Origin: a virus
Taxonomy: Duplodnaviria > Heunggongvirae > Uroviricota > Caudoviricetes
IMG/VR virus record: IMGVR_UViG_3300029816_000015
Span: 1-23,279 of that record
Length of the DNA stretch: 23,279 nucleotides
Strand: one strand, 5' to 3'
Shown here: piece by piece, positions 8,363-21,661 of the stretch
How the letters are laid out: each line of letters begins with the position of its first letter
How positions within the stretch are numbered: the first letter of the stretch is position 1
The notes under the pieces: model-generated
Seen by the model: the letters and a program-made list of their open reading frames with translations, nothing else
Databases searched by the model: none
Told to the model about the DNA's origin: nothing
Position numbers and translations under genes: made by a program

Positions 8363-9709
8363 TTATTTAATAAGAGATTTTAGAGCATTCTGGAGAGCCA
8401 GTTTGCGTTGTTCAGCGGTGTCTTCGGAAGCATTCTTAGCTGGTTCTTTTTCTTCTTCAACCAAATCAGCTTCGCCGTCATTACCCACTTCTTCCATAGC
8501 GTTGGAATGTTCAAGAACAGCACCAGCAGTTTCTTTCAGCTTGGTAATTTCTGATTCTTTTTCTTCCATTGCAGAAGCATGGGACGCGATAGTTTCATTA
8601 AGTTTCTGGTTAGCACCTTCCATAGCATTCATAAACAGAACACTCAGAGGGTTATCAAGACCAGCACCTAAAATAGTCGTTGCAGCTTCTTTTGCATCAA
8701 ATCCAAAAGCTTCAGCAGAAGCAGAAATCTTATTAGTCAAATCTGACAAAGCAGCTTCCTGTTCTTTAGCTTTCATTTGAGCAACCTGAAGACGCAAAGC
8801 TTCTAGTTCTTGCTTTTCTTGTTCAGTCATTTCTTCACCTGAATTGTTAACGTTTAAACTTACAGGAGCCTCTTCAGAACCTTGTAAGTAATTTAAGAAA
8901 TCATCTTGAGACATGATTGAGTTAATTAAACCAAGTTCAAGAGCTTCCTGAGCAGAATAAACATTCGCCTCAGTATTCTTTACAGCTTCTTCAGAGAGAT
9001 TACGAGATTCAGCTACAAAACCTGTAAAGGTTGCGTAGGTATCATTAATTCTCTTTTGAAGTCTTTCTTTGCTTTCTTCTGAAAGTGCTTGGAATGGTGA
9101 ACCCATACCTTTAAACTCACCAGCTTTGATGACGTTAATTGTTACGCCATTCTTTTCAAATGCCTTAGTTAATTCCTGATGAACCATGATTACACCGATA
9201 GAACCAACATCTGCATCTGGTGATGCAATAATTTCTTCAGCAGAAGATGCAAGAGCATATGCAGCGGAACAAGCGAACTCATCTACATAAGCAATAATTT
9301 TCTTTTGGCCTCTTGAAGCCATAATGTGACGTGCTAATTCAAAGCAACCTGAAGCTTCACCACCACCAGAATCAATATGCAGAACAATAGTCTTAATTGA
9401 CTCATCTGCTAGAGCTTCGTCAAAGCCTCTACGTAAACCCTCATAAGAGCTTAAACCACCAGTACACATTGCATCAATGAATGTCATACGATGAGTTAAA
9501 CCACCCATAATAGGGATAATAGCAATATCATCTTTTACTTTTAAAAGACTTCTTGCTTCACCTTTGGGTTTATCAAAGTTTACTGCTGCTTGGACATCAC
9601 CCAGCAATCTGTTATTCACATAAGTTGCTGCTGAGTGAGCTAATGATTCAGTGGCTAGTAAAGGTTGGTTGAATAATCTATCAGCAAGTCTGAAGATATT
9701 CGAACTCAT
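8363..9709 (-). CDS. Prohead protease (S49/SppA-like) fused to scaffold-like C-terminal region
   Basis: 448 aa; N-terminal half has S49-like motifs (LHIDSGGGEASG..., FACSAAYALASSAEEII with candidate catalytic Ser); C-terminal half is acidic, helical, Glu/Ala/Lys-rich like a scaffold; RBS GGGTGAG upstream. Confidence 0.75.
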   Translation of the reverse strand: MSSNIFRLADRLFNQPLLATESLAHSAATYVNNRLLGDVQAAVNFDKPKGEARSLLKVKDDIAIIPIMGGLTHRMTFIDAMCTGGLSSYEGLRRGFDEALADESIKTIVLHIDSGGGEASGCFELARHIMASRGQKKIIAYVDEFACSAAYALASSAEEIIASPDADVGSIGVIMVHQELTKAFEKNGVTINVIKAGEFKGMGSPFQALSEESKERLQKRINDTYATFTGFVAESRNLSEEAVKNTEANVYSAQEALELGLINSIMSQDDFLNYLQGSEEAPVSLNVNNSGEEMTEQEKQELEALRLQVAQMKAKEQEAALSDLTNKISASAEAFGFDAKEAATTILGAGLDNPLSVLFMNAMEGANQKLNETIASHASAMEEKESEITKLKETAGAVLEHSNAMEEVGNDGEADLVEEEKEPAKNASEDTAEQRKLALQNALKSLIK

Positions 9710-9720
9710 TTTTACTCACC

Positions 9721-10053
9721 CTATTTGTTTAAATCTACAGAGACTGAAGAGATAACATAGATACCTTCTTCAGCGAAGAATTGAGGTTTGCTAAGAGCAC
9801 CAGTTGCCACGCATTTATCGTTAGCATCCCACAAGCTATAGTGTGAGACCGTTGCAGAAGCTGGAACAGTAATGCTAACTGTGTCTTCTGAGGCAATTAA
9901 GCCATTATCCGGTTCAGAAAAATAAATAGCCACTGGCTGAGTAACCTTATTTGCTGTAGGGTCTGCCGTTGGGTCTACATTGTGTAAAATAATAGTCGTT
10001 GGGGTTAGCGTGGCGAGGATTTTATTCTTACCATCAATAGTTAATGTTCCCAT
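9721..10053 (-). CDS. Hypothetical protein (head module)
   Basis: 110 aa ORF between portal and protease genes; no recognisable motif. Confidence 0.45.
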   Translation of the reverse strand: MGTLTIDGKNKILATLTPTTIILHNVDPTADPTANKVTQPVAIYFSEPDNGLIASEDTVSITVPASATVSHYSLWDANDKCVATGALSKPQFFAEEGIYVISSVSVDLNK

Positions 10054-14255: not shown

Positions 14256-14990
14256 TTATTTCTGTAATGCGTTCTTCATTTCTGGTGTTGCAATAGTATC
14301 AATTACACCAGTTTTACAAGCATCATCAAACCAGTCTGGTAAGATACCTGCTAAGAACCCATTGATATTCGTTTTAAGGTACTCTGCAATAAGGGCAGCT
14401 TCTTCTTCAATCATCTGCACAACTTCATCTGCATAAGCTGTAATCTTCGAGATACCTTCATTAATCTTACTAACAGCTTGGTTAGCTAAATCAGAAACAG
14501 TATCAAGACCTTTATCAATAGCATCTTGTAAGTCACTTAATACATCATTAACACCGTCTAGTGCACTGTTAATTGTGTCAATAGCTTTTTGACCATACTC
14601 TGTAGCAACACCCATAATACCACTAAATGGTGTACAACCAACTTGCTCTCCTGCTGCACCCATAACATTGGAGTAGCCTTTTGCTACCTGCATACGTGAG
14701 GAAAACTCATCAATAGACTTTTGACCATAATCTGTCAATGTCTTAGTGGTTGATGTAGTGCTTGTCAGACTCGTTGTAAAGCTATTAAGCAGAGCTGTTG
14801 TAAGTCCAGCAGCAATGAGCTTATCCTTCATTGTAGGGTCTGTTACAGAGCTAATAGAGCTTACAAGTGATGTAGAGGCAGCCACGGTTCCACCTAGAAC
14901 TGCTGCACCAGTAATAAGGGGATTAGAAAACCCTCTACCGGTTTTTAAGAGATTAAAAATCTCCTTACCTTGTTCTGTCATCTCTTTCAT
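14256..14990 (-). CDS. Hypothetical protein embedded in the tRNA array
   Basis: 245 aa from ATG 14988-14990 with RBS AAGGTG 5 nt upstream; the ORF-track 5' extension to 15053 overlaps tRNA-Phe and is rejected. Ala/Thr/Ser-rich, helical C-terminal half. Confidence 0.55.
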   Translation of the reverse strand: MKEMTEQGKEIFNLLKTGRGFSNPLITGAAVLGGTVAASTSLVSSISSVTDPTMKDKLIAAGLTTALLNSFTTSLTSTTSTTKTLTDYGQKSIDEFSSRMQVAKGYSNVMGAAGEQVGCTPFSGIMGVATEYGQKAIDTINSALDGVNDVLSDLQDAIDKGLDTVSDLANQAVSKINEGISKITAYADEVVQMIEEEAALIAEYLKTNINGFLAGILPDWFDDACKTGVIDTIATPEMKNALQK

Positions 14991-15008
14991 TAAGCACCTT
15001 TGAAATTG

Positions 15009-15083
15009 GTAGTCCAGTGGGATTTGAACCCTCTTCTCATGTTTTTCAGACACGCGCTTTAACCATATAAGCTACTTGGACTA
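15009..15083 (-). tRNA. tRNA-Phe (anticodon GAA)
   Basis: Acceptor TAGTCCA/TGGACTA; T loop TTCAAAT; anticodon stem-loop CGTGT-CTGAAAA-ACATG; D stem weak. Confidence 0.55.
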
Positions 15084-15198: not shown

Positions 15199-15271
15199 CA
15201 GCGGCATAAGGATTTGAACCTTAATAAGACAGCTTCAGAGACTGTTGCATTGCCAGTTATGCTATACCGCT
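15199..15271 (-). tRNA. tRNA-Gln (anticodon CTG)
   Basis: Acceptor AGCGGTA/TGCCGCT, D stem GCAT/ATGC, anticodon loop CTCTGAA, T arm TAAGG-TTCAAAT-CCTTA, CCA encoded. Confidence 0.65.
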
Positions 15272-15279
15272 AAATTTGG

Positions 15280-15355
15280 TACTCCATATCGGATTCGAAC
15301 CGATACATAACACAGATTTTAAGTCTGGCCTCTCTGCCAATTGGAGTAATGGAGC
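15280..15355 (-). tRNA. tRNA with Leu anticodon TAA but short variable arm (76 nt)
   Basis: Acceptor GCTCCAT/ATGGAGT, U8, D stem CTC/GAG, anticodon stem CAGA/TCTG with loop CTTAAAA, 7-8 nt variable loop, T arm ATCGG-TTCGAAT-CCGAT, A73, CCA encoded. Confidence 0.5.
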
Positions 15356-15360
15356 ATTGG

Positions 15361-15433
15361 CGGGGGATGTTGGAATTGAACCAACTTCTTCGATTTCAAA
15401 GACCGAGGTTTTAACCTTGTAAACTAATCCCCT
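15361..15433 (-). tRNA. tRNA-Gln (anticodon TTG)
   Basis: Acceptor with A1-C72 mismatch, T arm GTTGG-TTCAATT-CCAAC, anticodon stem TCGGT/ATCGA with loop CTTTGAA, CCA encoded. Confidence 0.6.
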
Positions 15434-15441
15434 TTAAATCT

Positions 15442-15999
15442 TTACTTTCTTAGTGGATGAATAAAGAATGCCAACATAACTCTTTCCCTTGAGAATGCTC
15501 TTTCTTCTGGGACAACACTTTTAAGTTTCCACCCAACATAAATTCTCCAGTAGAATTGCTTACCAAAGACTTTAATTGACGGGATAAAAGCGAATAATCC
15601 CCAAGCATTACTGTTCCACATTAGGAGATAACCTGTCTGATTATCTTCAGGGTTAGAACTTACATTGATATTACCTTTCCACTTAGTAACATCTTTTACA
15701 TCTCTTCCTAACACATGGTAAGAGAAGTTATAAGCTTTGTTTCTCCAGAGCCAACCAACTCTCTGCATATAGACACCAAGCTTACCAATCTTTCTAATCT
15801 TAGCCCATCGTTCGACATGACCTTTATCACCATCAATTGGGTTGTCATATGTCTCCATCCATCTGAATCCAAAAGGGAGATGTCCTTTCTTCTCACTGTA
15901 GAATGGAACTACGAAAGGTGCTAAGATAACTGCTAAGATTGCTGCAAATGGCTCTAACAAAGCTAAGAAAATCCATGAAGCATACTTCAAATATCTCAT
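15442..15999 (-). CDS. Hypothetical membrane protein embedded in tRNA array
   Basis: 185 aa ORF with RBS AAGAGG upstream of ATG; N-terminal hydrophobic helix (WIFLALLEPFAAILAVILAPFVVPF), Trp/Lys-rich remainder; flanked tightly by tRNA genes. Confidence 0.55.
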   Translation of the reverse strand: MRYLKYASWIFLALLEPFAAILAVILAPFVVPFYSEKKGHLPFGFRWMETYDNPIDGDKGHVERWAKIRKIGKLGVYMQRVGWLWRNKAYNFSYHVLGRDVKDVTKWKGNINVSSNPEDNQTGYLLMWNSNAWGLFAFIPSIKVFGKQFYWRIYVGWKLKSVVPEERAFSRERVMLAFFIHPLRK

Positions 16000-16021
16000 C
16001 TAAATAGCCTCTTTAAATTGG

Positions 16022-16094
16022 CGCAGGATAAGGGATTCGAACCCCTATTAACAGCTTCGTAGACTGTTGCTCTATCCATTTGAACTAATCCTGC
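16022..16094 (-). tRNA. tRNA-Arg (anticodon ACG)
   Basis: Acceptor GCAGGAT/ATCCTGC, T arm AGGGG-TTCGAAT-CCCTT, anticodon stem ACAGT/GCTGT with loop CTACGAA, CCA encoded. Confidence 0.65.
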
Positions 16095-16102
16095 AAAACT
16101 GG

Positions 16103-18831: not shown

Positions 18832-18906
18832 CGTTCCAGAAGGGATTTTAACCCTCAAATATCCACTTTGAAAGAGTGGTGACTATACCATTTTGTCTAC
18901 TGGAAC
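18832..18906 (-). tRNA. tRNA-Glu (anticodon TTC)
   Basis: Acceptor GTTCCAG/CTGGAAC perfect, D stem GAC/GTC, perfect anticodon stem CCACT/AGTGG with loop CTTTCAA, unusual T loop TTAAAAT, CCA encoded. Confidence 0.6.
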
Positions 18907-18916
18907 ATTAATTTGG

Positions 18917-18990
18917 TCTCTGTTGGAGGACTTGAACCTCCGGCCTTACCGCCCCAAACGGAACACTCTACCAAGCTGAGCTAAACAGAG
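18917..18990 (-). tRNA. tRNA-Pro (anticodon TGG); first gene of the array in transcription order
   Basis: Acceptor CTCTGTT/AACAGAG perfect, T arm GGAGG-TTCAAGT-CCTCC, anticodon loop TTTGGGG, CCA encoded. Confidence 0.65.
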
Positions 18991-19016
18991 ATAAACTTTT
19001 CAAACTCTATGTAACC

Positions 19017-19046
19017 ACTTTAACATTATTTTTTAGTGATTGTCAA
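19017..19046 (-). promoter_or_regulatory. Sigma70-like promoter for the tRNA array (minus sense TTGACA-N18-TAAAGT)
   Basis: -35 TTGACA at 19046..19041, -10 TAAAGT at 19022..19017; predicted start about 10-20 nt upstream of tRNA-Pro. Confidence 0.45.
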
Positions 19047-19108
19047 GAACTTTTTTAAAATATTTTTCAGTATCTTAGAAAAGCTCTCATTTCGTTTCTA
19101 TGTAGAAC

Positions 19109-19137
19109 ATATTAAAGGGTATCAAACACATTGTCAA
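19109..19137 (-). promoter_or_regulatory. Second sigma70-like promoter (minus sense TTGACA-N17-TAATAT) overlapping a hairpin
   Basis: -35 TTGACA at 19137..19132, -10 TAATAT at 19114..19109, 17-bp spacer; the -35 lies in the loop of hairpin GGGTAT...ATACCC (19117-19142). Confidence 0.45.
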
Positions 19138-19147
19138 TACCCTTTTT
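19115..19147. terminator. Hairpin GGGTAT-N14-ATACCC flanked by T/A runs (candidate terminator for the upstream minus-strand operon)
   Basis: 6-bp stem; on plus followed by TTTTT, in minus sense by UUUAAU; sits 10 nt downstream of the stop of the vWA gene. Confidence 0.35.
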
Positions 19148-19155
19148 AAAACTTT

Positions 19156-19521
19156 TTACCAGATATAACGGTCAACCATTACTGCTTTGAGCATTACGCT
19201 GATTGGGTCAAACTTCTCACCACCAAGCAGAGCTTTTAAAGTGGCTGGAGAGAACCCTGATACCATCGCTACACCATTATCCTTAACAGATACTTCGCAA
19301 GTACCATTACGGTTTGCTAAGTACCAGAATACTAGTTGTGGCATTTCGTATCCAGCTTTTTTGTACTTACTCTGAATTGCTTCAAAGTTTGTACGACCAT
19401 TTGCACCATCAACCTGATTAAACTCCATATCAGAGAAGATAATAAGCTTACTTGGCATATCTTTCTGAGTCAAGTTGTTTCTCTTACCTATCTCAAGAAT
19501 ACGGTCAAAGCTGCTTGTAAG
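19156..19521 (-). CDS. C-terminal part of Ro60/Rsr-like (or DUF2828-like) vWA-domain protein, out of frame with N-terminal part
   Basis: Frame open from just after a TAA at 19522-19524; encodes LTSSFDRILEIGKRNNLTQKDMPSKLIIFSDMEFN... (second half of a vWA fold). ORF track entry 19156..19473 begins at an internal TTG. Confidence 0.55.
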   Translation of the reverse strand, partial: LTSSFDRILEIGKRNNLTQKDMPSKLIIFSDMEFNQVDGANGRTNFEAIQSKYKKAGYEMPQLVFWYLANRNGTCEVSVKDNGVAMVSGFSPATLKALLGGEKFDPISVMLKAVMVDRYIW

Positions 19522-20570
19522 TTAGTTGAACCATATTCAACATGACGCATTACCTGACGATGACGGTTTCGTAAATCACCACTCAGTTCAATGAAATGAG
19601 GGTTTGTTGAATAGACCATTAACTCATCTTTAAAGCAACCTGTATTGCGTTCTGCTACATACAAGGCAAGTGATACACCAATATCAAGGGCAGTGATTGA
19701 ACCAAGATTCACCCAAGACATTGAGCTTGAAACATCAGTCATACACAAGATGTTCTCACCTTCTGCCATCCAGTTTGGTAGTGCTTTCCACTGCTCATTA
19801 GCAACATCTGCATTACCATGCTTGATAGACTTAATCACATCGTATGGGTAGACAGCACCAGCATTAATCTTAGCCTCACCTTTTGATAAGGACTCAATGT
19901 AAGCTTTGTAGCGTTCTCCATCTTTGCGGTTAAAGAGCTTTTGGTAACGTGCAGCAGCAAGAGACGGAATCTTACTGTAATCAATCTTACCAAACTCATT
20001 AGCAGAGATTTTTTGCTCAACCGTATCAGACAGTGCAGATAACAGTGTGCGGTATTCTTTCTCGCTTAAGTTTGCAAACTTACAGAAACGTTTTACAAAC
20101 TGTTTGTGTCGTGGTTTTACTCGTGGTAACCACTTGGCTGCTAAACCTGCTGTCTCAGGGTCTAGTAATGCTGCTTCTAAATGCTTAAAGGCATCTGTCT
20201 CAAAACGAGTACCTACGAAGATTTTGAAGTCATCAAAACGACCAAGTTCTGCAATCTTATCCATAATACGAAGAAACTGTGTAGGCTCTAAAACTTTATC
20301 TTCGATTGCTTGAAGTAAAACAGTTCTGAAGGCTTTACGCTCACCCATACCTTCTCGTACATCTCGCATGTGAAGCAAAATACGAACTGCAACATCAACA
20401 TCCTCACGCAAAGCTTTGTAGAACAAGTCTGGTAAGATTTCTACATTGCTACGGCTTGAACCAGCAGCTTTGTAAAAGTCCACAAGAGCAGACATTGATG
20501 AAGTATGGTTTACAGCACCATTTTCAGTTCGACCTGCATGAAGGTGCGCATGTTTAAATAATTCGCTCAT
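19488..20570 (-). CDS. N-terminal part of Ro60/Rsr-like (or DUF2828-like) protein: helical domain plus start of vWA domain
   Basis: 360 aa; RBS AAGAGAG upstream of ATG; helical N-terminal about 280 aa, then DxSxS motif (CMTDVSSSMSW) typical of a vWA MIDAS; ends at TAG 19488-19490 inside the vWA domain. Confidence 0.6.
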   Translation of the reverse strand: MSELFKHAHLHAGRTENGAVNHTSSMSALVDFYKAAGSSRSNVEILPDLFYKALREDVDVAVRILLHMRDVREGMGERKAFRTVLLQAIEDKVLEPTQFLRIMDKIAELGRFDDFKIFVGTRFETDAFKHLEAALLDPETAGLAAKWLPRVKPRHKQFVKRFCKFANLSEKEYRTLLSALSDTVEQKISANEFGKIDYSKIPSLAAARYQKLFNRKDGERYKAYIESLSKGEAKINAGAVYPYDVIKSIKHGNADVANEQWKALPNWMAEGENILCMTDVSSSMSWVNLGSITALDIGVSLALYVAERNTGCFKDELMVYSTNPHFIELSGDLRNRHRQVMRHVEYGSTNLQAALTVFLR

Positions 20571-20651
20571 ATTTTACTCTCTTCTCTCATTTGTTGTTTG
20601 ATGTGACAGACTTTAGAGCAACTTTGTAGAGTCTGTCAACACCTTTTAAAA

Positions 20652-21023
20652 TTATTTTTTGAGAGTCGCTACAGCAGAGAACGTTGGTTTGTTATCTGTC
20701 TGTGGTTGACCACCATTATCAGGAGTCTTCTTAGTGTCTGCTGCAAGTGCTTTCATCTCACCTGCTGAGTGAGTAAAGATAGTTTTACCGACCTCAATCA
20801 TACTCTTGATGGTTACATCGTCTGTGTTTAACCCGAACTCTGCAAGCTTAGCAGCATCCCTTGTAACAATCGCCTCAAACAGCTTTGCAGCAAACTCAGC
20901 AGAATTATCAATGGTCAGTTGAGCTTTTACGAGTGAGCTTTTGTTACGAGAGCCTTTTGGTCTTCCAGATGGGTTTCCAGATTGGCCTTTTTTAAACTGG
21001 CCTTTGTTTGTTCTGTTTTTCAT
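20652..21023 (-). CDS. Small basic protein with N-terminal GNPSGRPKG motif (putative nucleic-acid-binding)
   Basis: 123 aa ORF, RBS AAGAGG 8 nt upstream; N-terminus KGQFKKGQSGNPSGRPKGSRNK; first gene of the minus-strand operon containing the Ro-like gene. Confidence 0.55.
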   Translation of the reverse strand: MKNRTNKGQFKKGQSGNPSGRPKGSRNKSSLVKAQLTIDNSAEFAAKLFEAIVTRDAAKLAEFGLNTDDVTIKSMIEVGKTIFTHSAGEMKALAADTKKTPDNGGQPQTDNKPTFSAVATLKK

Positions 21024-21070
21024 TGGTATGCCTCTTATAAGACCTCTTAAAAGGCTTTTAAGATAAAAGA

Positions 21071-21090
21071 TAGATATCCAGAAAGATATC
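21071..21090. promoter_or_regulatory. Operator-like inverted repeat AGATATC-N6-GATATCT in divergent intergenic region
   Basis: Perfect 7-bp arms separated by CAGAAA, between the divergently transcribed minus (20652..21023) and plus (21273..) operons. Confidence 0.4.
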
Positions 21091-21151
21091 TGTTTAAATA
21101 GCCTTTTTAGAGGAACCTTTTAAGTTATCTTCTAAGTATTTATAAGCCTAC

Positions 21152-21210
21152 ACCTTGTCAAGTACTTTGTCAACAACTTTTTTAACTTGCAATAGTTCTT
21201 GACTTGTTGT
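21152..21210. promoter_or_regulatory. Cluster of TTGTCAA/TTGAC repeats (candidate operator/promoter elements)
   Basis: CTTGTCAAG palindrome (21152-21160), TTTGTCAACAAC (21165-21176) and inverted CTTGACTTGTTG (21198-21209). Confidence 0.35.
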
Positions 21211-21227
21211 ATGGATTACTGTACCAT
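21199..21227 (+). promoter_or_regulatory. Candidate sigma70-like promoter for the plus-strand operon (TTGACT-N17-TACCAT)
   Basis: -35 TTGACT 21199-21204, -10 TACCAT 21222-21227, about 45 nt upstream of the first plus-strand ATG; -10 is weak. Confidence 0.35.
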
Positions 21228-21272
21228 CTTACTTAAAGCTGTAGGTCTGCCTTGTTCTACAAAGGAGACTTA

Positions 21273-21434
21273 ATGAGAAAATCAAACAACCCGAAGAAAG
21301 GTAAAAATACCAATCACTGTAAGGAATCAAAAAGGGTAGAGTTACTCTACTATTCATCCTCTGAAATTGGTCTGTACCTGTTCTTTCAAAATTACAGAAG
21401 ACAAGAGGATTATCTATGTGTAGTTCCCAATTAG
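21273..21434 (+). CDS. Small basic hypothetical protein
   Basis: 53 aa from ATG 21273 with strong RBS AAAGGAGA 5 nt upstream (ORF track starts at an upstream TTG, 21252). Confidence 0.45.
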   Translation: MRKSNNPKKGKNTNHCKESKRVELLYYSSSEIGLYLFFQNYRRQEDYLCVVPN

Positions 21435-21661
21435 AAATCGCAGATATTATAGATTTATATAAGACTGCAAAGAGTCATGGCTATATAACCTCAATTGGAA
21501 AGAATAGTCACTACGATGCTTTGACTGGAATGTATTTCAGGGCAATGGCTCAATCTAGTGAACAACACTTAATGGTTTCTTCCAGTGAGTTTACTTCGTT
21601 TCTCTATTGCAGCAAAATCATAAATCGCAGGAGAACTGAAAATGTTAACAGTAAGTTTTAA
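21416..21661 (+). CDS. Small hypothetical protein
   Basis: 81 aa ORF with RBS AGAGGA upstream; overlaps both neighbours by about 20 nt. Confidence 0.4.
   Translation: MCSSQLEIADIIDLYKTAKSHGYITSIGKNSHYDALTGMYFRAMAQSSEQHLMVSSSEFTSFLYCSKIINRRRTENVNSKF

Follow-up and report, generated by a model that had tools for sequence, protein, structure and literature searches.

Probable divergent host-type promoters and a putative leader hairpin in the gene 40/41 intergenic region of a Felix O1-like phage

We describe here a control region within a 23,279-nucleotide stretch of viral DNA (the window; IMG/VR virus record IMGVR_UViG_3300029816_000015, positions 1 to 23,279), which belongs to a Felixounavirus with 97% identity to phage UAB_Phi87. 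The region occupies the 250 bp gap between a minus strand gene encoding a 123-residue DUF5681 protein and a plus strand open reading frame (ORF) of 53 residues with its ATG at 21273, and because the segment is collinear with phage FO1a, in which gp41 is the DUF5681 protein and gp40 the product of the 53-residue ORF, it corresponds to the gene 40/41 gap of Felix O1. In our view the gap is best explained by two divergent promoters of the host type together with a leftward leader whose hairpin would act as RNA, a combination that we consider reasonably probable. An initial annotation of the sequence had described a divergent control region with operator-like repeats, and the flanking genes do lie on opposite strands; the observation holds and the gap is indeed a control region, but most of the repeats are ordinary promoter elements. 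The motifs named at that stage are all in place, with AGATATC at 21072–21078 and GATATCT at 21085–21091 separated by six bases (the GATATC repeat), CTTGtCAAG at 21154–21162, TTGTCAAC at 21167–21174, and CTTGAC at 21198–21203. Absent from that account were a 19 bp palindrome at 21045–21063, an outer inverted repeat (21043–21059 and 21097–21113) with the GATATC repeat inside it, and five CTTNNAAG sites.

Probable divergent promoters of the gene 40/41 gap

The motifs in the gap stand above chance because they are conserved, and not because of their numbers. Perfect inverted repeats of the 7-N6-7 form occur twice in the window and 2.08 ± 1.5 are expected from dinucleotide shuffles, a 7 bp inverted repeat with a 3–8 nt spacer arises in 18% of shuffles of the intergenic region, and TTGTCAA is present ten times in the window with 6.9 expected. 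Conservation was assessed in an alignment of 30 distinct sequences from Felixounavirus, Suspvirus, Mooglevirus, and unclassified relatives, with 82–99% identity to the window over 1.07 kb, and this is the sample to which invariance refers below unless otherwise specified. More distant relatives, whose DUF5681 identities range between 69% and 55%, were taken from phages in GenBank and from Logan metagenome contigs, and the comparison of promoter layout covers 11 lineages; it was the Logan contigs that supplied the useful intermediates, and an IMG/VR search with the single protein gave only close relatives. The alignment contains two conserved islands, one a block with all of the palindromes and the other the rightward promoter and its leader. 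There are no variable columns at 21072–21101, just six in the 90 bp from 21042 to 21131 (two, none, and four per 30 bp bin), and three, three, and four per bin across 21192–21281, whereas coding sequence in the same alignment has 8–22 variable columns per 30 bp. The most variable stretches are 21162–21191 and 21012–21041, with 15 and 16 variable columns respectively.

Read on the minus strand, the two TTGTCAA boxes are TTGACA hexamers situated 12 bp apart, which we refer to as boxes A and B. Box A is the -35 element of P41, the one promoter predicted at Felix O1 40/41, which has the sequence TTGACA-N15-TATAGG (PMC3185647) and is the same locus by homology. The published -10 is present only in Felix O1 itself, and the window reads TGTAGG at this position; as judged from the alignment, the conserved -10 is instead TAGGCT at N17, and this corrects the published architecture of P41. 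Positions T1, A2, and T6 of TAGGCT are invariant and the middle bases vary, a pattern expected of a functional sigma-70 -10 element. Selection is evident only on the -35 and on these three positions, with variation seen between boxes A and B, in the middle of the -10, and in the upstream spacer. We propose TTGACA-N17-TAGGCT as the leftward promoter, with a predicted start near 21138.

The same layout, with an A-tract, TTGACA, 5–7 nt, a second TTGACA, 4–6 nt, and TAnnnT at 17–18 bp from box A, is found in 11 of the 11 lineages and at two other sites in UAB_Phi87 (52538 and 17279, the 17.2 kb copy being looser). A 25-nt stretch spanning both boxes recurs with 24 of its 25 positions in the other divergent region of UAB_Phi87, beside the DNA polymerase gene, and many UAB_Phi87 intergenic regions have aaaaagttgTTGACA followed by TAnnnT at N16–18. 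By these sequence comparisons, TTGTCAA and CTTGAC are the -35 elements of a genome-wide promoter family of the host type. The initial annotation had the motifs overlapping candidate -35 boxes, and TTGTCAA and CTTGAC do coincide with -35 elements, but they are the hexamers themselves and not operators overlaid upon them. The CTTGtCAAG palindrome is present but its symmetry is not conserved; the two TGTCAA cores are invariant, in contrast to the 5–6 bases between them, and the C at 21154 needed to complete the palindrome is not conserved, being a G in Mooglevirus.

Box B is retained in all of the lineages at a spacing of 11–13 bp from box A. However, neither the 11 lineages nor the 30 relatives have a conserved TAnnnT 16–18 bp downstream of it, the first base of a candidate TACTTA (position 21138) varies, and we reject box B as a separate promoter for want of a conserved -10. 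The sequence aaaaagtt(g/c) is situated 5' of box A in all lineages, as well as in many other promoters of the genome, and from the known consensus the A6 tract may serve as an UP-element. Two further candidates were discarded. A T4-type late promoter is suggested by TATAAATA on the minus strand at 21144–21137, but this is not conserved in Suspvirus or Mooglevirus, and an apparent 12 bp tandem array across the region (lag-12 autocorrelation z of 5.9) derives from three separate two-copy repeats with no signal at lags of 24 or 36.

The rightward promoter, TTGACT-N17-TACCAT, is almost invariant, and reading the reverse complements of the intergenic sequences of loci L050 and L055 gives TTGACT-N17-TATTGT and TTGACT-N17-TAGTAT respectively. 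A possible second rightward promoter was not found on reading the L050 intergenic sequence. The two principal promoters would thus be back-to-back, of the sigma-70 host type, and with -35 boxes 25 bp apart, the rightward one driving small genes homologous to those for Felix O1 gp40–gp38. Both have a TTGACA-like -35, a TAnnnT -10, and a spacing of 17 ± 1 bp. There is some similarity to strong promoters such as rrnB P1 and those of T5, including the perfect TTGACA, the A6 tract at approximately -41 to -46, and a conserved initially transcribed TTACTTAAAAG common to several promoters of the genome, but the -10 here is weak (TAGGCT) and there is a conserved second TTGACA within the spacer.

Divergent transcription at Felix O1 40/41 was recorded previously and described as "odd" (Whichard et al. 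2010, PMC3185647). That study lists P41 alone for the 40/41 region and no promoter for the second divergent one, 96/97, and the rightward promoter, box B, leader hairpin, and CTTNNAAG sites are not among the features it describes. In reverse transcription PCR of Felix O1, expression of ORFs 41 and 42 was highest at 25 min (PMC3185647).

The predicted leftward leader and its hairpin

A leftward transcript starting near 21138 would have an AT-rich leader of 115 nt, followed by the DUF5681 gene and the Ro60-like gene. The leader is predicted to form a long imperfect hairpin with a folding energy of -28.4 kcal/mol (z -2.9) that includes base pairing with the start of the DUF5681 ribosome-binding site (RBS). 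The GATATC repeat at its apex lies at about +47 to +66 of the leader, with its center (21081/21082) at about +58, and is some 150 bp upstream of the predicted rightward start. Because the repeat overlaps no promoter it cannot repress both units by blocking polymerase binding, and the initial suggestion of possible repressor control of both units is not supported in that form.

The patterns of substitution indicate selection on base pairing. In L050, a relative with 69% identity, AGAACAT-CTTTCT-ATGTTCT is in register with AGATATC-TTTCTG-GATATCT of the window, such that four double substitutions preserve the 7 bp stem. Among the 30 sequences the pair 21112/21044 is C-G in 20, U-A in nine, and U.G in one, and the pair 21116/21042 is G.U in 20 and A-U in ten; both variable pairs are acceptable in 30 of 30 in the transcribed sense, and in 29 and 10 respectively on the opposite strand. 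The remaining four variable bases of the conserved block are all unpaired. Folding of the transcribed sense is favored over the antisense by 13–19 kcal/mol in three relatives, L050, L053, and the Hafnia phage. The four compensatory changes and the C-G/U-A/U.G series are more readily explained by a hairpin in the transcript than by a fixed site for a protein, and the GATATC repeat more likely caps a hairpin in the leader RNA than serves as an operator that occludes a promoter. We put a leader RNA element at about an even chance and favor it over a DNA operator, to which we give a considerably smaller one. Such a leader would act after initiation and at the RNA level, perhaps through the level of first-gene translation, the stability or processing of the mRNA, or read-through, and it is probably not a repressor operator that blocks polymerase.

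Several observations weigh against this interpretation. The antisense folds slightly better in the window as well as in SUSP1, Moogle, M719, L055, and L052, Erwinia phage phiEa104 lacks a recognizable long hairpin and folds at only -12.6 kcal/mol, and the Hafnia clade has different hairpins in its place. The bases of the loop and internal loops are as invariant as those of the stems, which a simple hairpin would not require and which suggests sequence-specific recognition that is equally possible on DNA, and the repeated CTT..AAG palindromes create hairpins as a by-product. The compensatory evidence comes from one divergent lineage and one pair, which is a small sample. On the promoter side, the model does not account for the conservation of box B, and we found no transcription start data in the literature for Felixounavirus or any Felix O1-like phage. 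Neither a known RNA family nor a Y RNA beside the Ro-like gene was detected with Rfam, for which searches returned only tRNAs at gathering scores within the window, and at E ≤ 5 over 18900–21400 the sole match in the region is a chance microRNA with 19.5 bits.

The five CTTNNAAG sites in the leader belong, on the evidence of motif counts, to a genome-wide motif. It is present 36 times in the window (12.2 ± 3.6 expected) and 144 times in the UAB_Phi87 genome (42.5 ± 6.5 expected), an approximately three-fold excess that is limited to the 2-nt spacing, with none for spacings of 0 or 1 nt. The gene 40/41 gap has the highest density of CTTNNAAG over 150 bp in the whole genome, and there are other clusters in the second divergent region and in a gene-poor stretch of UAB_Phi87 (15450–16100, L019) outside the window; the latter marks a 1.7 kb gene-poor stretch situated at the convergent junction of two units. 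Throughout the genome CTTAAAAG is mostly in the sense orientation of transcription, and TTACTTAAAAG is located 29–31 nt after box B in every lineage as well as in the paralogous site. At site 1 the fourth base varies (A, T, or C) with CTT..AAG retained. Nothing comparable to these motif arrays was seen upstream of very distant DUF5681 genes.

The overall arrangement resembles two well-known early control regions, although neither closely. The T7 early region, with promoters A1–A3 and the R0.3 RNase III hairpin before the first gene, also combines tandem host-type signals with a long imperfect leader hairpin. However, the two -35 elements here are only 12 bp apart and share a single -10, and the AT-rich hairpin, which has large internal loops, is not retained in the Erwinia relative. 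The lambda PL-nutL-N segment shares with it a promoter, a leader hairpin (covarying here), and a small first gene whose product has a basic and disordered N-terminal arm, and a terminator-like hairpin at 19145–19114 follows the second gene. The layout fits lambda N/nut antitermination, but the sequences expected of boxA and boxB are not there. No CGCTCTTA-like sequence is present in the leader sense, the 6-nt loop is pyrimidine-rich (UUUCUG or CUUUCU) and not a GNRA-like or purine-rich pentaloop, and the basic arm is AT-hook-like in a family that occupies a small-terminase position.

Table 1. Features of the gene 40/41 intergenic region and its surroundings. Coordinates are those of the window; a dot denotes a feature without strand assignment.
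Feature	Coordinates	Strand	Remarks
DUF5681 protein, 123 residues, AT-hook-like N-terminal arm	20652–21023	-	First gene of leftward unit; candidate small terminase
Intergenic region, DUF5681 gene (minus) to 53-residue ORF (plus)	21024–21272	.	Felix O1 gene 40/41 gap, by homology
Predicted leader of DUF5681/Ro-like transcript, 115 nt	21024–21138	-	GC 0.296
RBS AAGAGG of DUF5681 gene	21031–21036	-	7 nt before ATG 21023; read from sequence
CTTNNAAG site 1, CTTATAAG	21034–21041	.	Adjoins RBS
Long imperfect hairpin	21034–21124	-	Outer stem 21043–21059/21097–21113; apex is the GATATC repeat
19 bp perfect palindrome TCTTAAAAG-G-CTTTTAAGA	21045–21063	.	Two CTTNNAAG sites head to head; partly kept in Erwinia phiEa104
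CTTNNAAG site 2, CTTAAAAG on plus	21046–21053	.	
CTTNNAAG site 3, CTTTTAAG on plus, CTTAAAAG in leader sense	21055–21062	.	
Inverted repeat AGATATC-N6-GATATCT	21072–21091	.	Minus strand AGAUAUC-UUUCUG-GAUAUCU
CTTNNAAG site 4	21117–21124	.	Part of TAACTTAAAAGG in leader sense
CTTNNAAG site 5, CTTCTAAG on plus, CTTAGAAG in leader sense	21129–21136	.	
Predicted -10 hexamer TAGGCT	21145–21150	-	17 bp after box A
Box B, second TTGACA, core of CTTGtCAAG	21156–21161	-	12 bp downstream of box A, inside spacer; invariant in 30
Possible second rightward promoter TTGTCA-N18-(TGc)AATAGT	21167–21196	+	-35 is complement of box A; -10 partly conserved; weak
Box A, TTGACA, within TTGTCAAC; -35 of Felix O1 P41	21168–21173	-	Invariant in 30; 11 lineages and two paralogous sites
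A6 tract	21178–21183	-	Just upstream of box A; minus strand aaaaaagttg-TTGACA; proximal-UP-element-like
Predicted rightward promoter TTGACT-N17-TACCAT	21199–21227	+	CTTGAC is its -35; predicted start near 21234
RBS AGGAG and ATG of 53-residue ORF (Felix O1 gp40 homologue)	21263–21275	+	

Alternative explanations for the conserved block

There are several other models to consider. A regulator of phage or host origin could have double-stranded DNA sites in the GATATC repeat and the CTTNNAAG sites, and perhaps in the tandem TTGACAA boxes, and would silence or time one or both of the units. This is the model of the initial annotation, and we think it unlikely though plausible; the regulator might act as a roadblock in the leftward leader or compete with sigma-70 at box B, and we are similarly doubtful of these modes. 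The 7-N6-7 geometry of the dyad is well suited to a dimeric DNA binder, the invariance takes in all bases of the block including the loops, the three-fold CTTNNAAG excess is at a single spacing with its densest clusters at both divergent regions, and box B is conserved without a -10 of its own. The invariant GRPKGSRNK of the adjacent DUF5681 protein, which matches HMG-I(Y) AT-hook 2 at nine of 11 residues, could be seen in the same light. However, the GATATC repeat overlaps no -35, -10, or start, and although it is perfectly conserved in related phages it is unique both in the window and in the 87 kb UAB_Phi87 genome, where the next-best matches have two to three mismatches and are in coding sequence, and thus there is no regulon. 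The initial annotation named, as grounds for refuting it, sites that are unique and lack conservation in related phages, and of these only uniqueness applies to the repeat. The arms in L050 are changed by four compensatory substitutions with a similar loop, and a binding protein would have to co-evolve with them. No helix-turn-helix or ribbon-helix-helix domain was detected in the five neighboring proteins, and DUF5681 is elsewhere in the position of a small terminase. The initial suggestion that an adjacent small basic protein is the binder therefore stands only in part, in that the protein has an AT-hook-like motif but is small-terminase-like by its gene position and by fitness data.

The block could alternatively serve as an origin of replication activated by transcription, as in T7, or as another DNA-level site such as one for terminase or for loading of a nucleoid protein, the polymerase-side region being a second copy; we rate this as improbable. 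The T7 primary origin consists of two tandem promoters followed by an AT-rich stretch, and the tandem promoter signals and AT-rich conserved block seen here, the T7-like replication proteins, and the paralogous copy beside the polymerase gene are all reminiscent of it, although the promoters are of the host type rather than for a phage RNA polymerase. Among the Felix O1 proteins are a DNA polymerase like that of T7 and a primase-helicase resembling gp4 (PMC3185647). Both the tandem TTGACA boxes and CTTAAAAG recur in the polymerase-proximal region, which includes the most AT-rich 120 bp of the genome (19% GC), and the conservation of non-coding sequence is extreme. Against an origin, GC skew is uninformative because its change coincides with that of gene orientation, and the leader is only moderately AT-rich (GC 0.296); a packaging cut site is excluded at this location since the physical genome ends are about 5.4 kb away. 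A further model, to which we give equally little credence, is that the repeat and palindromes are functionless and that the block is conserved through recent recombination among genera or as the downstream region of a strong promoter. Strong phage promoters, the T5 early promoters among them, are known to have conserved sequence just after the start of transcription, the number of 7-N6-7 repeats is that expected by chance (2 vs 2.08), and AT-rich sequences with CTT..AAG palindromes form hairpins readily. Such a block would nonetheless have to remain invariant in 30 genomes of three genera while its flanks diverge by 15–20% on both sides, with variable positions that are unpaired or compensatory and with the L050 stem kept through four double changes. 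The leader hairpin acting as RNA is the model that we prefer over these.

We have also entertained a broader proposal, which at present we regard as speculative and rather unlikely, that the 90-nt leader is a dedicated cis-regulatory RNA in which the hairpin apex and a CUUANAAG array are read by a phage or host factor, with autofeedback by DUF5681 as a candidate. It would gate a packaging and anti-defense unit, and a CTTANAAG code would link the second divergent region and the 1.7 kb gene-poor stretch into one regulatory or replication network in the Ounavirinae.

Transcription timing in the Felix O1-like phages is an acknowledged gap; these phages have neither an RNA polymerase of their own nor a known sigma modifier, and they are widely used for typing and biocontrol of Salmonella and Escherichia coli. 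The analysis does not overturn current ideas, but a vaguely defined control region is now resolved into specific parts at a locus flagged in the literature. The new elements are a corrected and conserved promoter architecture with a second -35 box, a tandem -35 signature common to the heads of three transcription units, a near-invariant leader segment of 90 bp with a covarying hairpin that can be mutated and tested, the CTTNNAAG array, and a candidate small terminase downstream.

The DUF5681 protein and neighboring genes

The product of the first leftward gene is probably the missing small terminase of the Felix O1-like phages, with an AT-hook-like arm. Pfam assigns it to DUF5681, and the family alignment has an invariant FKKGQSGNPxGRPKGSRNK motif. 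The only PDB sequence match of the N-terminal peptide is HMG-I(Y) AT-hook 2 (2EZD; nine of 11 residues), which is weak at an E-value of 0.24 and in keeping with a pairwise BLAST E-value of 3e-4; searches of PDB and NCBIfam with the whole protein gave no matches. An AlphaFold2 model has a disordered basic arm and two long helices, with low confidence (predicted local distance difference test score, pLDDT, 67). The terminase assignment is based on a distant homologue, P0046 (loci L059/L060), whose gene overlaps the start of a Terminase_6N/Terminase_3 large-terminase gene, together with fitness data for SUSP1, in which CRISPRi-ART scores the homologue agp130 as 'Fit' and both the Ro-like agp131 and the rightward agp127–129 as 'Not Fit' (PMC11879866 supplement). 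In the window the DUF5681 gene is separated from the large terminase gene by the Ro-like gene and 26 tRNA genes, and both Felix O1 and UAB_Phi87 are without an identified small terminase. With its AT-hook-like arm the protein could be a candidate for binding to the AT-rich block. A 'transcriptional regulator', Phi87_111, is annotated at another place in the UAB_Phi87 genome record.

The minus strand unit continues from the DUF5681 gene through the Ro60-like gene and the tRNA genes (18990–14082) to the terminase and structural genes. The 3.3 kb surrounding the control region has 96–97% identity to more than 200 Felix O1-like phages, with UAB_Phi87 as the top match, and the GC content of the gap is 0.325 relative to 0.398 for the whole window. 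The gap contains no convincing small conserved ORF, the only one noted being an unlikely 41-residue ORF with a TTG start that is antisense to the beginning of the DUF5681 gene.

The Ro60-like DUF2828/DUF7788 gene (19156–20570, minus strand) is split into ORFs of 360 and 105 residues by a 1-nt deletion in a T-run at about 19510, relative to the intact 471-residue protein of UAB_Phi87. The gene is thus a true pseudogene, or else the homopolymer was misread in sequencing. In Bas63 the homologous protein, gp130, acts against the Ppl defense system. The gene is present in L050, L057, and L058, but in three distant Ounavirinae, Erwinia phiEa104 (L013), Hafnia SarahDanielle (L014), and Pectobacterium Wc4-1 (L015), the tRNA genes directly follow DUF5681, and its absence there suggests a lineage-restricted insertion.

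Additional host-type promoters are predicted within the minus strand unit at 20639, 19137, 19046, and 17646, one (TTGACA-N18-TAAAGT) between the DUF5681 and Ro-like genes, two just 5' of tRNA-Pro, and one within the tRNA array, which probably has its own promoters. The terminator-like hairpin after the Ro-like gene (Felix O1 t42/t43) has a 12 bp stem and overlaps the first tRNA promoter. A 265-residue ORF (14256–15053, minus strand) lies between tRNA-Ser and tRNA-Phe inside the array.

The second divergent region of UAB_Phi87 (52343–52568; L020 4343–4568) contains, along with three CTTAAAAG sites, the copy of the tandem boxes that matches at 24 of 25 positions, and is a candidate for either a replication origin or an early promoter hub. 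We considered and rejected a genome terminus or pac site in the gap, since the identical 542 bp ends of the UAB_Phi87 record map to 15233–15774 of the window; a 608 bp terminal repeat has been shown experimentally for UAB_Phi87 (PMC4837284). The matching segment of the window spans tRNA-Gln/Leu/Gln and part of a 185-residue ORF, and the genome ends of this phage type thus fall inside the tRNA array. The GenBank record of Si3 (L001/L002) is broken inside the promoter region at 21141/21153 of the window with about 11 bp missing, and we reject this as a terminus because it is an assembly break. The occurrence of matching sequence at two places in Salmonella phage SPJ41 (L003) is due to a 127 bp tandem duplication further to the right, of window positions 21392–21518, located at 9543–9669 and 9670–9796 of that locus.

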